The notes under the pieces: model-generated
Told to the model about the DNA's origin: nothing
Seen by the model: the letters and a program-made list of their open reading frames with translations, nothing else
Database searches by the model: none
DNA from: an uncultured delta proteobacterium
GTDB lineage: Bacteria > Myxococcota > UBA727 > VGSZ01
Assembly: GCA_963775425.1 (NCBI GenBank)
Contig: CAVZJB010000011.1
Location: 448,001-512,000, forward strand
Reading direction: 5' to 3'
Length of the DNA stretch: 64,000 nt
Translations under genes and position numbers: made by a program
In this document: positions 3-5,474 of the stretch, piece after piece
Numbering within the stretch: the stretch's first letter is position 1
Layout: each line of letters starts with the position of its first letter

Positions 3-3000
3 GGCGAACCCGGGATCGGTCCAACCGTTGGTGGACGTCGGGCGCTCACCGTCGTGGCAGGGCAGGCACGTCGACGGCGTGGCGTCGCCGACGTTGTGGA
101 AGCGGCCGCCGGAGAACGAGGTGTACGAGCCGCCGCCGTGGCAGGTGATGCAGTCGGTCAGGGCCGCCGCGGTGGTGTGATCGAACGTGACACCCGCGGG
201 CAGCGACGCCGCGCTCGCGTGCGTGAACGTCGTCGCCGGGCGCGAATTGGCGTGGCAGTCGATGCACGACCCGGGCTGCGGCAGCGAGGCAGCGTCGAGC
301 GAGTCGTGGAACACCGTGGGCGTGTCGCCCGCCGCCCACGTCGTCGCCGGCGACTGCACCGTCGGCGGCACGTGGCAGACGCTGCACTCGACCGGGACGA
401 GCGCCGTCGTCGTCGGCGCGTCGTTCACCCACGCGACGGCGTCGTGCTTCATCTCGCCCGAGGCGGGGTTGCGCGGCGGATCGGTGGCCGTGGGGCCGAC
501 GAAGCCGGTGGGCATGGACGTGAAGTGGCACTCCGTGCAGCGCGTGGGCTCGGCGATGAAGAGGTTCTCGAGGGAGGAGTGGAATTCGCCGGGGTAGTAG
601 TTGACGGTGTCGCTGTGGCAGTTGGTGCACGTGTTCATCACGGCCACGTCGACCTGCGCGGTCAGGTGGTCCATCGGCATCGGCATGGTCTCGGTGACCG
701 CCTGCAGGCTCTCGATGGAGGTGACGGTGTACGTGGGGATCTGCGCGTTCACGTCGATGGAGCGCAGCGGGTCGTTGACGAGGTTGGCGGGGAGCAACCC
801 GTCTTCGCCATGGCACAAGGTGCACGTGGCGGGGTTGTTCATGCGGCTCTCGTCGTGGTCGAAGTCCCAGGCCGCCGCGTACGCCGCGCCCGTCGTGGTG
901 GTCGCGATGCTCCCGGCCGCGGGGGTGACGTGGCACGCGGTGCAGTCGGTGCCGTAGAAGTGGTTGACGACGTCCACCGTCAACGACTGTCCGGGGTACG
1001 CCGGCGTCGTGATGGTCATCGTCGCCACCGTGAACGGCCGCGTGTCTCCGGCGCCGGAGGCGAGGTCCGTGGCGTTGTTCCACGGGGTGCCGACCAGGTC
1101 GCTCCCCGACTCGTGGCAGCTCCCGCAGTGCGTCTGGATGAGCGACGAGGCGTGGTCGTAGGCGACGGCGTTCCTGCCGCCGGTGGCGTTCGCGCCGTGG
1201 CAGGTCTCGCACGAGGTCCCCGTGGGCACCGTCGGGTGCGGCAGGTTGGCGATGCCGGGCTCGATGGTGGTGGCGTTGTCCGCGGGCGGCTGCGGCACGA
1301 GGAAGCCGCCGACGCTGATGAGCTGCGGGAAGCCGCCCTCGGCGCCGAGCCAGTTGGGCGCCGACGGCGTGCCGGTGCCCGGCCACGAGTGGCACGAGGC
1401 GCAGTCCTGCGTGCCGGCCTGGTCGGTGAACGCGGTGTGGTCGACGACGTAGCCGGGGCCGGGCTTCACGTTGACGTGGCAGTGGCTGCAGCGCCCGCCG
1501 CTGCTGTTGAGGATGAGCGGGCTGCTCGCGGTGAAGCGATCGTGGAACGTGGCCTGCGCCCACTCCTTGCCCTGCGCGGCGCCCGACGGCGCGGGGCCCG
1601 CCTGCGTGTGGCAGAAGTTGCAGTCGTGGGCGCCGACGTTGGCGTCGCCGTGATCGATCTGATCGCGCGTGCCCGGCGCCACGCCGGTGGAGGCGTCGTC
1701 GGAGGCCGTGGACACCGCGGTGGTGTCGACGACGCCGGCGGGCATGTTGTTCCCCGCGCCGGGCGCGCTGCCGACGCCGTGACACTCCTTGCACGACGTC
1801 ACGCCGACCGACACCGACGCGTGGAACGGCGTCGACGTCGAAAACGCAGCCGGCGACGGCACCGCGTCCGCCGCATGGCAGCTCGCGCAGTCCTGCCCCG
1901 CCACGTAACGAGCCGTGTGGCTCATCCACTGCGCGCCGTTGTCCGCGGTGCCGCCCTGCGCGAGCACATAGCTCACGCCGCTCTGGGTGAGCGCGGACGG
2001 CTCGCCCGCGCCGTGGCACTCCTCGCACGTCGACGGCTGCGAGGCGGCGCCGGTGTCGAGCCCCGCGTGAAGGGCGCCCCCGGACCACCGCGCCGCCGTG
2101 GCCGGCGCCTGCGCGGCGTTGCCGAGCGCGGCGGCGTGGCAGGTCTGGCAGTTCTGGAACGGGATCTCCGCCGACGCGTGGTGCATGGCGTAGTCGGTGC
2201 CGGAGGCGACGTCGGCCTGCGCGGTGTTCGCGACGGTCGGGTAGTGGCAGAGGGTGCAGTCGGCGGGGACGGCGGCGCCGATGTTCCTGTGGAAGGCGCC
2301 GTCGGCCCACGTGTCGCCCGGGCTCGCGTGGCAGGTGCTGCAGTCGATCTGCGAGACGTTCGAGACGCTCACGCCGCCGATGTTCACGGGGCTCGTGAAC
2401 GCCACCGAGTGATCCATGGGGATGAGGTCGGAGCCGGCGTGCTCGACGATGTGATCGGGCGACCTGTGACAGTCCGCGCAGTGGCTCGTCGGCTGCGGCA
2501 GCGGCGTCACCGCGCCGCCCGGCGTGGCCGTGAACGCGTCGAGCGCCGGGTGGTACTGGCCGTTCACCAGCGACGTGACCGTGCCGTTCGTGTTGGTGTG
2601 GCAGTGGAAGCAGACGCCCTCGTCGGGGTTGGTGGGGCTGCCCGGGTCGAGCGCTGCGGGGAGCGCCGCCGACGTGTGCAGCATCTGGTTGTAGATCGTG
2701 GCCGTGATGGACGTGGTGCTCGTGACCAGGTTGTTGGGTCCCGAGCGCACGAGGCTGATCTCGCTGACCGTGAAGAACTGGTCGAGCCCGCCGATGGGCA
2801 CGTCGCCGGGGTACGTGACGCCGCCGGACCAGTCGCCGCCGGGCAATTCGCCGGTCGACGGGTCGAAGTAGTTGTCGAAGCGCGCGGTGGTGACGCTCGC
2901 CTGGTGGCAGCCAAAGCAGTCGCCCGTGCCGTCGTTTTGATGGTCGAAGCCGAGGAGGGCCGCCGCGTTGCCGACGCCGATGACGAGGTCGGGGCGCTGC

Positions 3001-4487
3001 GTGCTGTGGCAGGCGATGCAGGACTGGTCGACGGCGGTGCCGGGGGCGTGGGGGTAGTCGCCGCCCTGCCAGTTCTGGTCGACGCCGAAGGTGCCCGAGC
3101 CGGGGCCCGCGTGGCAGAGCACGCAGTCCTGGCCGGCGCCGTGGGTGGCGGCGGCGTTGCCGGTGAAGTCGAAGGGCCGGTCGCGGAAGCCGGTGTCGGC
3201 CCACGCCGCCGTCGACGTCGGCCGCTCGCCCTCGTGGCAGGGAAGGCACGACGACGGCACCGCGTCGCCCGCGTGGTGGAACCGGCCGTCGGCGAACGAC
3301 GTGTGTGAATCGCCGGCGTGGCACGCGGCGCAGTCGCCGCGCGCGGCGGGCGCGGCGTGATCGAAGACGACGCCTGGCGGCAACGACGCGTTCTGCGCCG
3401 TGAACGTCGTCGAGGGGCGCGAGTTGGCGTGGCAGTCGATGCAGGAGTCGGGCTGGGGGACGGCGGCGGCGTCGAGCGAATCGTGGAACACCGGCGGGCC
3501 GTTGGCGGTGGCCCACGTGGCCGCCAGCGTCTGCGACGGCGGCGTATGGCACAGGCCGCACTCGGTGGGGACGAGGCCTGACGCGGTGGGCGCGTCGGCG
3601 AGCCAGGCCACCGCGTCGTGCTTCATCTCACCCGAAGCCGGATCGCGCGGCGGGTCGACGGCGAGGGGCCCGACGAAGCCGGTGGGCATCGACGTGAGGT
3701 GGCACTCGGCGCACTGCGTGGGCTGCGGCTTGAACAGCGTGCCGAGCGACGAGTGGAGCCTGCCCGGGTAGTACGTGGCGGTCTCGGCGTGGCACGCGGT
3801 GCAGTCGAGCATGGTCTCGGCGTCGATCTGCGACGTCGCGTGCTGCATCGGCATCGGCAACGTCTCCACCGTGGGGGTGACGGCCGCGATGGACGTGCCG
3901 GCGTAGCGGGGCAGGAGCGCGTCGACGTCGACGTCCGCGAGCGGATCGGACGCGAGACCCGGCGGGAAGGCGCCGACCTCGGTCCAGTCGGTGGTGGAGA
4001 AGTGGCAGGCGCCGCAGTCGGCGCTGCCGCGGTCGGGGTGCGTGAAGCCCGCGATGGGCAGCGCGGCGAACGCGGCGCCCTCGTCGTGGCAGGTGGCGCA
4101 TTGGTTCTGGCCGCTCGCGTGATCGAAGATCGGCCGCTGCACGCCGCGCGCGTGGCACGCGTAGCAGTCCACGCTCTCGTACGCGTAGTCGCTGACGGTC
4201 TCGTGCAGGAGGTTCGTGGCGACGGGCTCGTGCTCGTGGCACGAGACGCAGTTGAACTCCTGGAAGGTGTCGCTGTTCGTGTGGCACTGCGCGCAGTCGA
4301 CGGCGTGCGGCCCGCTGTCGATGGGGAAGTACGACTTCGAGTGCTCGGCGATGGTGAGCCCGGCGAACACGGGTTTGCCCGGGTCGGTCGGGCAGCCCGC
4401 GGCGAGCGCGGTGATCGCGAGCGCGGCGAGCGCCGGCAGGAACCCGGCCCGCGTGATCTCCCGTTCATGGATTCCGGCCTTGCGCAT
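3..4487 (-). CDS. Giant lipoprotein multiheme c-type cytochrome (about 35 CxxCH motifs in window; 3' end beyond window edge)
   Basis: Hand translation from ATG 4487: MRKAGIHEREITRAGFLPALAALAITALAAG-CPTDP (lipobox), then CAQCH, CVSCH, CYACH, CATCH, CGACH, CTACH, CAECH ... CLPCH at 54-68, all in one frame. No stop before the edge, which is why the ORF track omits it. In-frame stops at 4521-4529 bound the start. Confidence 0.93.
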   Translation of the reverse strand, partial: MRKAGIHEREITRAGFLPALAALAITALAAGCPTDPGKPVFAGLTIAEHSKSYFPIDSGPHAVDCAQCHTNSDTFQEFNCVSCHEHEPVATNLLHETVSDYAYESVDCYACHARGVQRPIFDHASGQNQCATCHDEGAAFAALPIAGFTHPDRGSADCGACHFSTTDWTEVGAFPPGLASDPLADVDVDALLPRYAGTSIAAVTPTVETLPMPMQHATSQIDAETMLDCTACHAETATYYPGRLHSSLGTLFKPQPTQCAECHLTSMPTGFVGPLAVDPPRDPASGEMKHDAVAWLADAPTASGLVPTECGLCHTPPSQTLAATWATANGPPVFHDSLDAAAVPQPDSCIDCHANSRPSTTFTAQNASLPPGVVFDHAAPAARGDCAACHAGDSHTSFADGRFHHAGDAVPSSCLPCHEGERPTSTAAWADTGFRDRPFDFTGNAAATHGAGQDCVLCHAGPGSGTFGVDQNWQGGDYPHAPGTAVDQSCIACHSTQRPDLVIGVGNAAALLGFDHQNDGTGDCFGCHQASVTTARFDNYFDPSTGELPGGDWSGGVTYPGDVPIGGLDQFFTVSEISLVRSGPNNLVTSTTSITATIYNQMLHTSAALPAALDPGSPTNPDEGVCFHCHTNTNGTVTSLVNGQYHPALDAFTATPGGAVTPLPQPTSHCADCHRSPDHIVEHAGSDLIPMDHSVAFTSPVNIGGVSVSNVSQIDCSTCHASPGDTWADGAFHRNIGAAVPADCTLCHYPTVANTAQADVASGTDYAMHHASAEIPFQNCQTCHAAALGNAAQAPATAARWSGGALHAGLDTGAASQPSTCEECHGAGEPSALTQSGVSYVLAQGGTADNGAQWMSHTARYVAGQDCASCHAADAVPSPAAFSTSTPFHASVSVGVTSCKECHGVGSAPGAGNNMPAGVVDTTAVSTASDDASTGVAPGTRDQIDHGDANVGAHDCNFCHTQAGPAPSGAAQGKEWAQATFHDRFTASSPLILNSSGGRCSHCHVNVKPGPGYVVDHTAFTDQAGTQDCASCHSWPGTGTPSAPNWLGAEGGFPQLISVGGFLVPQPPADNATTIEPGIANLPHPTVPTGTSCETCHGANATGGRNAVAYDHASSLIQTHCGSCHESGSDLVGTPWNNATDLASGAGDTRPFTVATMTITTPAYPGQSLTVDVVNHFYGTDCTACHVTPAAGSIATTTTGAAYAAAWDFDHDESRMNNPATCTLCHGEDGLLPANLVNDPLRSIDVNAQIPTYTVTSIESLQAVTETMPMPMDHLTAQVDVAVMNTCTNCHSDTVNYYPGEFHSSLENLFIAEPTRCTECHFTSMPTGFVGPTATDPPRNPASGEMKHDAVAWVNDAPTTTALVPVECSVCHVPPTVQSPATTWAAGDTPTVFHDSLDAASLPQPGSCIDCHANSRPATTFTHASAASLPAGVTFDHTTAAALTDCITCHGGGSYTSFSGGRFHNVGDATPSTCLPCHDGERPTSTNGWTDPGFA

Positions 4488-4612: not shown

Positions 4613-5474
4613 TCACTCGGCGACCTTCTTCTCGCCTGCCGCGATGCGCACCGGCAAGGTGTTCTCCGGACGCGGCAGGGGACAGGTGGCGAACGGCGTG
4701 AACGCGCAGGGCGGGTTGTAGGCGCGGTTGAAGTCGAGCGTGACCTTCCCGTTGCGGGGTGCGTCGGCGGAGAGGAAGCGCCCGGCACCGTGGGTCTCCG
4801 CCGGCGCCGTGGCGTCCTTGAACACGAAGAACAGCGCGCCGTCCTCGTCGACGGGCTCGAGCGTGACGGCGTGGCCGTCCACGGAGAAGTGCGCGCGCCC
4901 CGTGGCGAAGGCCTCCTGCGCCGGGCCGTGCGCGCTCGGGATCATGAGGCGCAACTTGTCGGCGCGTCGCCTCGATGACCCAGCGCTCGTCGACGGGGAA
5001 CGCGTCGATGCCGGGGAACTTCGTGCGGCGCTCGCTCCGTGCGTCCCACTCGCGGATCGCGAGCTGCCCGGTGCGCTCGATGAGCGCGACGGTCTTGTCG
5101 CCGAGGTGGAGCGTGTCCGGATGGCCGCTCGCGTCGCTGTGGAGGACCACCTCGCCGACGGGCTTGCCGTCTTCGGTGTAGCCGTCGCTCTCGCGCGCCG
5201 CGAGCGTCACCTGCGGCGCGCCGTCGACGGTGGCGAGCGTGAGCACGCCGGGCAGGCCGGGGACGGCGTTGTCGCCCGGGCGCAGCCATTGCAGCGCCAC
5301 CAGCGCGAGCCATCCGTCCGGCTCCTTCAACCGCTCGATGCGCTCGTCGTGCCACTTCTGCCACGCGGCGACGAACGGCGCGGCCGCGCGCGGCGCCGCG
5401 GGAGGGGCGTCCTTGTGGCACGCGCCCGAGAGCGCGACGGCGGTGACGACGGCGAGGGGGACGACGGCGCGCAC
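4613..5474 (-). pseudogene. DUF1684-family lipoprotein split by a frameshift near 4960-4965
   Basis: N-half in ORF 4527..5474 (LSGAC lipobox, GWLALVAL, FPGIDAFPVDERWVIEA). C-half in ORF 4613..4954 (LFFVFKDAT, GAGRFL, LDFNRAYNPPCAFTPFATCPLP). Confidence 0.8.

Follow-up and report, generated by a model that had tools for sequence, protein, structure and literature searches.

Giant multiheme cytochromes recur in metagenomes, and none of them has a known structure, partner or role. The window considered here, a stretch of 64,000 nucleotides from an uncultured member of the Myxococcota (genome G000; positions 448001 to 512000 of contig CAVZJB010000011.1, abbreviated C11), opens at its left edge inside the gene of such a protein. 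The locus raises the question of how far this cytochrome extends, how it is built, and with which partners it may exchange electrons. A preliminary description, made from the letters of the window alone, had proposed a giant lipoprotein-type multiheme cytochrome c with about 35 hemes "and still running". The gene is real and encodes a lipoprotein-type c-type cytochrome with 53 CxxCH heme-binding motifs.

The frame starts with the ATG at position 4487 on the minus strand and stays open to window base 3, giving 1495 codons with zero stops, as the preliminary description had it. A listing of open reading frames (ORFs) reveals this frame only if open ends are allowed; running off the window, it is missing from an ordinary ORF track, which had also been pointed out. 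The window has a guanine-plus-cytosine (GC) content of 72.7% and holds many long spurious frames. The GC content by codon position in the 4487 frame is 0.62 at the first, 0.58 at the second and 0.965 at the third position, the last value marking it as the coding frame and not as another spurious long frame of a GC-rich window. The hand count of about 35 CxxCH motifs proves to be exactly 35 for the window part of the protein, in which 70 of the 71 cysteines lie inside these motifs and the remaining one is Cys32 (...ITALAAG-C). Neither CxxCK nor any other variant heme motif occurs in this part, and shuffling its residues 2000 times gives a mean of 0.17 motifs with a maximum of 2. Followed leftward in the contig, the frame meets no in-frame stop before C11:445609, which yields a protein of 2292 amino acids (aa) with 53 CxxCH motifs. 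The protein was indeed still running at the window edge, with a total of 53 hemes and not about 35. Only C32, C2229, and C2235 lie outside CxxCH in the full protein, and 2000 shufflings of its residues leave a mean of 0.26 motifs compared to the actual 53. The mature apoprotein has a mass of ∼232 kDa, or ∼264 kDa with 53 hemes. The gene lies as follows.

C11:445609-452487, minus strand: the whole 53-heme cytochrome gene, reaching 2391 bases past the left window edge.
Window 3..4487, minus strand: the part of this gene inside the window (aa 1-1495 of 2292), identified by the open frame, the third-position GC content of 0.965, 35 CxxCH motifs and Pfam matches.

The protein shows a layout of a lipobox, a head domain with 5 hemes and two tandem modules (A and B) with 24 hemes each, so that 5 + 24 + 24 = 53. 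The modules comprise ∼1050 aa each, and residues 183-1228 and 1241-2288 are 56.6% identical over 1065 columns. The heme spacing is nearly identical in both, including a heme-free stretch of 102 residues at the same place. The lipobox was read by eye and by regular expression as an N-terminal hydrophobic stretch followed by LAAG-C, an export signal in keeping with the extracytoplasmic attachment of heme; the same Cys, preceded by a hydrophobic stretch, is found in 15 of 15 two-module relatives, in agreement with the lipobox proposed beforehand. The parts within the window are the following.

4392..4487, minus strand: lipoprotein signal peptide (aa 1-31) and lipobox Cys32 (LAAG-C), from the translation, with the Cys invariant in 15/15.
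3942..4391, minus strand: N-terminal 5-heme head domain (aa 33-182) with CxxCH at 65, 80, 108, 130, and 158, outside the internal repeat.
768..3941, minus strand: module A (aa 183-1240) with 24 CxxCH motifs, 56.6% identical to aa 1241-2288.
3..767, minus strand: start of module B (aa 1241-1495, 255 residues) with 6 of its 24 CxxCH motifs, the rest lying left of the window.

A long internal repeat of this kind could in principle mislead an assembler, and the gene might then be an artefact, two copies chimerised by repeat misassembly, or a dead gene. This explanation is very improbable. The two modules are only ∼74% identical at the DNA level in the stretch compared, too divergent to collapse or to be misjoined; the contig of 1.15 Mb contains no N within the gene; and the high third-position GC content holds along the frame. 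Moreover, 14 proteins from other assemblies share the layout of 53 motifs in ∼2270 aa, with all motifs aligned.

These 14 proteins belong to a larger set. A word-indexed protein search with the 53-heme cytochrome returned 87 proteins at an E value of ≤0.001, which were sorted into forms by their CxxCH counts and by BLAST mapping of head and module. The forms follow, by sequence comparison, a rule of 5 + 24n hemes (29, 53, and 77), which defines a modular, mostly myxococcotal and uncharacterised family. Members with one head and one module carry 29 motifs in ∼1260-1300 aa, with a related group of 26-28 motifs (one-module forms overall, ∼1260-1330 aa). Those with one head and two modules, 14 besides the present protein, carry exactly 53 motifs in 2230-2308 aa, and the single protein with one head and three modules, P0003, carries 77 motifs in 3346 aa. 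Irregular members with partial module copies have 38, 57, 69, 70, 73, or 78 motifs. The head domain maps to the N terminus of nearly all members. Two metagenome loci hold further multimodule members: L055 shows at least 68 motifs in a frame of 2924 aa cut at its 5' end, and L059 shows 58 motifs in 2341 aa, with no cluster genes (of the type described below) within their short flanks.

Where source names are given, the relatives are each called 'hypothetical protein' and come from metagenome-assembled genomes (MAGs) labelled Archangiaceae, Myxococcaceae, Anaeromyxobacteraceae, Myxococcales, or Deltaproteobacteria, and the eight genome loci holding relatives have similar titles. The named relatives are thus Myxococcota MAG records, in line with the myxobacterium-like host suggested earlier. 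An exhaustive search with module A among 1.84 billion proteins gave 264 cluster representatives at an E value of ≤0.001, many of them fragments, and 117 at 1e-30. Of 40 relatives of the host genome, G001 alone yielded a full-length ortholog (61% identity, 53 motifs), in a search with a stricter first look whose counts are a floor. The weakest matches of the protein search, P0076-P0088, look unrelated and include two proteins from Saprospirales/Saprospiraceae MAGs (64-91 motifs, one per 25 aa). These matches of 1556-2282 aa, with 51-91 CxxCH motifs at about one per 25 residues, all start with a ...NPHG... motif and are only 21-28% identical to the 53-heme protein; besides the two Saprospirales/Saprospiraceae labels, two read Deltaproteobacteria, most entries are unlabelled, and the set represents a different giant-cytochrome family.

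The number of modules appears to have changed more than once. A FastTree phylogeny of 56 modules from 37 proteins and a quick IQ-TREE phylogeny of 30 modules, both restricted to regular forms with a minority of the near-identical 26-motif group, agree with each other. Clade 1 (support of 100) unites both modules of each of P0002, P0004, P0005, P0007, and P0011. Clade 2 holds the modules of the other 53-motif proteins, and one-module proteins branch between the two clades. Within the three-module protein P0003, module 1 is sister to module 2. A tree forcing all first modules together is 162 log-likelihood units worse, with a P value of 4.85e-05 in the approximately unbiased test, for a first-module group named after inspection of the tree. 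The module sequences therefore point to at least two independent doublings or to a single doubling, after which the modules of one lineage were homogenised.

Conservation of the heme ligands bears on what the protein may do. Alignment of the 15 two-module proteins shows all 53 CxxCH motifs, Cys32 and 51 further His residues to be invariant, in keeping with the earlier remark that a lone His precedes many of the motifs. The head contributes 4 of these 51 residues, module A 24, and module B 23; His49 is nearly invariant in addition. An alignment of 46 modules shows 20 of the 24 motifs without exception (46/46) and 23 nonmotif His residues with a conservation of at least 85%. A second His for each heme, outside the motif, is characteristic in c-type cytochromes of electron transfer hemes with bis-His, six-coordinate ligation. 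The 51 invariant His residues fit such hemes and argue against a catalytic site, and each would presumably pair with an individual heme, as far as the alignment allows such pairs to be drawn. With a conserved second His for almost all hemes, the protein is probably an electron-carrying or electron-storing one and not an enzyme.

It is accordingly improbable that the protein is a redox enzyme that reduces or oxidises a soluble or mineral substrate at one or a few catalytic hemes, with the other hemes supplying these as in octaheme or HAO-type enzymes. With 51 invariant nonmotif His residues for 53 hemes, up to two hemes are left without an invariant His, and several Met residues are conserved in the module as well; the nearly invariant His49 could nevertheless serve one of the two remaining hemes. 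The window part contains no CxxCK or variant motif, duplication of a whole module is hard to square with a single active site, and no catalytic cytochrome family is matched in Pfam, in NCBIfam, or, by sequence, among solved structures.

Only generic heme-domain Pfam models match the protein, which place it among the multiheme c-type cytochromes with class III or c7-like heme domains. PF22113 (MtrC/MtrF domains II/IV) reaches 212.8 bits (cutoff, 30) over 11 stretches, PF14522 (cytochrome c7) reaches 197.2 bits (cutoff, 24.8), and PF02085 reaches 65.3 bits (cutoff, 22.9). Single tiles of 220 aa (11 tiles, residues 1-1320) give only marginal matches to PF22113, of 23-37 bits. No NCBIfam model exceeds its cutoff, the best being the DmsE-type decaheme model (DmsE/MtrA-type) with 34.6 bits versus 192.2; the nanowire_3heme model TIGR04257 is not listed for the protein at an E value of ≤0.01, and phmmer finds no match among solved chains at the same threshold. 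No curated family is thus matched at the sequence level, and no identity to a characterised cytochrome family, which by the preliminary description would remove novelty, emerges from the solved chains or NCBIfam. The AlphaFold2 model of module A, built on a 46-row alignment, is poor, with a mean predicted local distance difference test score (pLDDT) of 61.1 and a predicted template modelling score (pTM) of 0.38. Such a result is to be expected for a heme protein modelled in its apo form. With this low-confidence model, Foldseek against the PDB gives 0 matches at an E value of ≤0.001, and VIA-align wide gives 0 chains at a Z score of ≥2.

Candidate partners come from the surroundings of the relatives, where a cluster of three genes recurs. 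The first encodes a flavoprotein of ∼760-960 aa that has 4Fe-4S and Pyr_redox domains and begins and ends with hydrophobic stretches. The second encodes a 30-motif cytochrome, which gene calls sometimes split into 20 + 10. The third encodes a Cys-poor protein of ∼550 aa without a Pfam match. The model of a 544-aa representative of the third protein, built from a 13-row alignment, contains ∼22 long strands (pLDDT, 78.2; pTM, 0.61) and matches 313 solved chains in Foldseek at an E value of ≤0.001; the rows listed are all outer membrane barrels (chitoporin, MOMP, AlgE, Occ porins, and pilus ushers; mostly porins and exporters). The protein is consequently predicted to be an outer membrane β-barrel. 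Of 80 related loci, 8 from genomes and 72 from metagenomes, which are not independent samples, 14 contain at least one of the three cluster genes. Where one of the flanks spans 5 kb or more, 13 of 34 loci do so, and in four cases (L017, L020, L027, and L090) the family member follows immediately on the end of a barrel gene with the same orientation.

The host genome itself carries the cluster twice, on C11 and on a second contig, C4.

C4:372514-380572 (locus L024 6514-14575), minus strand: cluster copy 1, with an 8-heme lipoprotein cytochrome, the barrel, the flavoprotein and the 30-heme cytochrome.
C11:166930-179984, both strands: cluster copy 2, paralogous to copy 1.
C11:166930-171806, minus strand: flavoprotein and 30-heme cytochrome genes of copy 2, overlapping by one base.
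C11:175816-179984, plus strand: 29-heme lipoprotein cytochrome and barrel paralog of copy 2.

In the C4 cluster, the barrel comprises 544 aa, the 30-heme cytochrome is secreted, and the flavoprotein of 957 aa shows an N-terminal hydrophobic stretch, the 4Fe-4S and Pyr_redox domains and a conserved multihelix C-terminal part of no known family. A search of the ESM Atlas with this C-terminal membrane part returned only an unnamed cluster, partly with Pyr_redox domains. The C11 proteins are 58-66% (flavoprotein), 53% (30-heme cytochrome), and 47% (barrel, by tblastn) identical to those of C4. C11:166924-171807 was considered as a flavoprotein-cytochrome fusion and rejected, the BLAST coordinates corresponding to two frames that overlap by one base. 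The barrel family occurs in 8 of 41 genomes searched, host included. The C4 cluster has the appearance of an electron conduit across the envelope that includes an electron input enzyme of its own in the cytoplasm, and it may bypass the quinone pool.

A possible link between the 53-heme protein and these clusters is the head domain. Both barrel genes of the host genome come after a lipoprotein cytochrome with head-domain copies, the 8-heme protein on C4 and the 29-heme protein on C11, the latter being built from repeats of head-domain type. The head domain of the 53-heme protein resembles those of the in-cluster cytochromes at 29-40% identity over ∼100-200 residues. The reading preferred here, to which a probability of roughly 55% is given on the strength of sequence and gene order, is that the 53-heme protein is an exchangeable outer electron-carrying partner of a conduit encoded twice elsewhere in the genome. 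This conduit would consist of the membrane-anchored 4Fe-4S/flavin adenine dinucleotide (FAD) flavoprotein, the secreted 30-heme cytochrome and the predicted outer membrane β-barrel. The head domain would be the common docking part, and the 24-heme modules would extend length or capacity, added by different lineages through tandem duplication. Electrons could flow either outward, to minerals, humics or other cells, or inward.

Several observations weigh against this proposal. The 53-heme gene stands alone in the host genome, away from the conduit genes, with the nearest conduit cluster ∼266 kb distant on the same contig; neither a porin gene nor a second cytochrome gene, which the preliminary description had advised looking for, adjoins it. 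The ortholog in G001 is likewise solitary and is preceded by a pyruvate phosphate dikinase gene. No cluster gene at all is found at 21 of the 34 nonindependent long-flank loci, and no multimodule locus has one within its short flanks. The likeness of the head domains is weak, and heme repeats are low in information. The poor module model supports neither a linear wire nor a compact shape. The predicted complex of the head domain (aa 33-200) with the C4 barrel scores 0.01 against a mark of 0.32, which is evidence neither way.

The solitary genes in both genomes and the 21 loci without cluster genes would be in better accord with a periplasm-facing electron reservoir, a capacitor tethered either to the inner membrane or to the periplasmic side of the outer membrane, which would buffer electrons for the respiratory chain during acceptor swings without any link to a porin. 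The host genome encodes two heme-copper oxidases and is hence not that of an obligate metal respirer; 53 hemes, mostly bis-His, are as well suited to storing electrons as to conducting them, and a capacitor-like role for giant cytochromes has been suggested (PMC11495043; here and below, the papers cited are represented by excerpts of their text). However, the 13 long-flank loci that place family members beside barrel, 30-heme cytochrome or flavoprotein genes, four members directly after a barrel, speak against a reservoir without porin link, and the lipoprotein cytochrome is the outer one in the known porin-cytochrome systems excerpted in PMC4245776. The reservoir is therefore possible, if on the unlikely side, and the role as outer partner of the conduit is preferred. 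On this preferred reading the protein would sit at the outer surface of the cells of this soil myxobacterium and would act as a wire or an electron store, an outer conduit or capacitor.

Upstream of the cytochrome gene on the same strand lie a DUF1684 gene, an MCP-signal gene, and a Ser/Thr kinase gene; downstream lie a convergent FHA-GGDEF gene and then a DsbA-like gene. Nine related loci share only paralogous Ser/Thr kinase matches with this neighbourhood, and none of the window neighbours occurs in the upstream stretch of the G001 ortholog. The DUF1684 gene (window 4613-5474, minus strand), with a lipoprotein-like N terminus and a score of 116 bits on its C-terminal piece, ends 126 bases before the cytochrome ATG. 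Its halves lie in different frames with a switch near 4950, corresponding to a frameshift (broken gene or assembly error) or to two ORFs. Scans of both flanks of the cytochrome gene show zero promoter-like sites and one weak terminator-like site upstream, both results being uninformative at 73% GC. A look-up of sequencing runs listed none for the gene, RNA included.

The host genome contains 18 frames with at least 4 CxxCH motifs and 255 motifs in total, the 53-heme gene being the largest. Cytochrome c maturation genes, named beforehand as a check on the heme protein, are present in the form of System II, with ResB (202.9 bits) and a ResC/CcsA family protein (84 bits) encoded side by side at C3:493343-496114, and CcmE was not found in the genome, which is 94.55% complete. 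The relatives of the same order include family f6, with 21 genomes of 0.3-3.4 Mb compared to 5-8 Mb in the host's own family, an unusual contrast in size for a single order.

A more far-reaching picture, doubtful as a whole, can be drawn from the preferred reading. Oxygen-respiring soil Myxococcota would possess an expandable heme cable, consisting of a 5-heme docking head and n 24-heme modules, with n raised independently in several lineages, plugged into a quinone-independent trans-envelope circuit. In this circuit, electrons would pass from the cytoplasmic FeS-flavoprotein with its own membrane domain to the 30-heme cytochrome, long enough to cross the periplasm, and on to the outer membrane barrel. 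The module number would set the reach or the charge capacity of the outer electron contact, and several alternative outer partners would be kept, with 8, 29, and 53 hemes in the host genome.

The family offers a handle on giant cytochromes through its clean 24-heme repeat unit, its natural one-, two-, and three-module versions and its conserved head domain, and the operon context of many relatives names the flavoprotein, the 30-heme cytochrome and the barrel as candidate partners. If the reading of this context is true, aerobic-capable soil Myxococcota join the organisms with extracellular or envelope-spanning electron transfer, with a testable case of heme-wire growth by module duplication. 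If it is wrong, the protein is one more uncharacterised large cytochrome.

In the excerpted full-text literature on multiheme and Myxococcota topics and on Anaeromyxobacter porin-cytochrome topics, supplementary tables aside, no description of the family, the 5 + 24n layout or the cluster context was found. One close comparison is with MtrC, OmcA, MtrF, and UndA, the outer membrane decahemes of Shewanella that act with MtrAB. The 53-heme protein shares with them a lipoprotein signal and, through PF22113 in 11 stretches, a likeness to domains II/IV of MtrC/MtrF. Family members of related genomes lie, as in the Mtr system, beside genes for a barrel and a secreted multiheme cytochrome, and the genes of OmcA and UndA can also lie apart from the barrel operon, according to excerpts of PMC11492766. 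In contrast, the Shewanella proteins have 10-11 hemes and four domains, two pentaheme domains alternating with two β-barrel domains, compared to the 5 + 24 + 24 arrangement here. No counterpart of the MtrC-type β-barrel domains I and III is seen in the low-confidence AlphaFold2 model of module A, no PDB chain is matched at an E value of ≤0.01, and no NCBIfam model exceeds its cutoff. The partner barrel and 30-heme cytochrome of the present clusters belong to families other than those of the Mtr system. The likeness to MtrC/OmcA, proteins cited in the preliminary description, is confined to the generic pentaheme Pfam domain; it does not extend to the heme number, to the arrangement of domains or to the sequences of solved or curated members.

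In the porin-cytochrome (Pcc) systems of Geobacter, the porin OmbB is combined with a multiheme cytochrome of the periplasm, the 8-heme OmaB, and with an outer lipoprotein cytochrome, the 12-heme OmcB, as described in the excerpts of PMC4245776. The present clusters share this logic around a porin-like protein. The same source reports porin-cytochrome clusters in Myxococcota and two-gene pcc clusters in Anaeromyxobacter, the latter with cytochromes of 12-14 hemes and no outer cytochrome in that paper. Compared with the Pcc proteins by description only, the present clusters add the membrane-anchored 4Fe-4S/FAD flavoprotein and the 30-heme cytochrome. Among the filament subunits OmcS, OmcE, and OmcZ, no solved chain is matched by sequence or by the low-confidence module model.

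Size alone is not new, since published cytochromes exceed 100 hemes. Excerpts report 112 motifs in a protein of a Paludibaculum MAG and many giant cytochromes in Saprospiraceae (PMC11495043), peat proteins with up to 116 motifs (bioRxiv 10.64898/2026.05.27.727921), Desulfuromonadia proteins with 53 and 69 motifs (PMC11492766), and ∼1400 RefSeq proteins with more than 10 motifs (PMC11475568). The metagenomic giants resemble the 53-heme protein as single chains with tens of CxxCH motifs, predicted to be secreted and proposed as wires or capacitors (PMC11495043; 10.64898/2026.05.27.727921; PMC11492766). They nevertheless belong to different families, the Bacteroidota proteins retrieved here, with 64-91 motifs, being only 21-24% identical at E values of 1e-12 to 1e-26, and the excerpts mention neither the 5 + 24n layout nor a range within the Myxococcota. 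The principle of a chain of repeated small heme domains is shared with the c7-type polymer cytochromes of Geobacter such as GSU1996, reportedly a periplasmic protein with 12 hemes, and PF14522 (cytochrome c7) exceeds its cutoff. The repeat of that family is a triheme domain, in contrast to the repeat of ∼1050 aa with 24 hemes found in the present protein.

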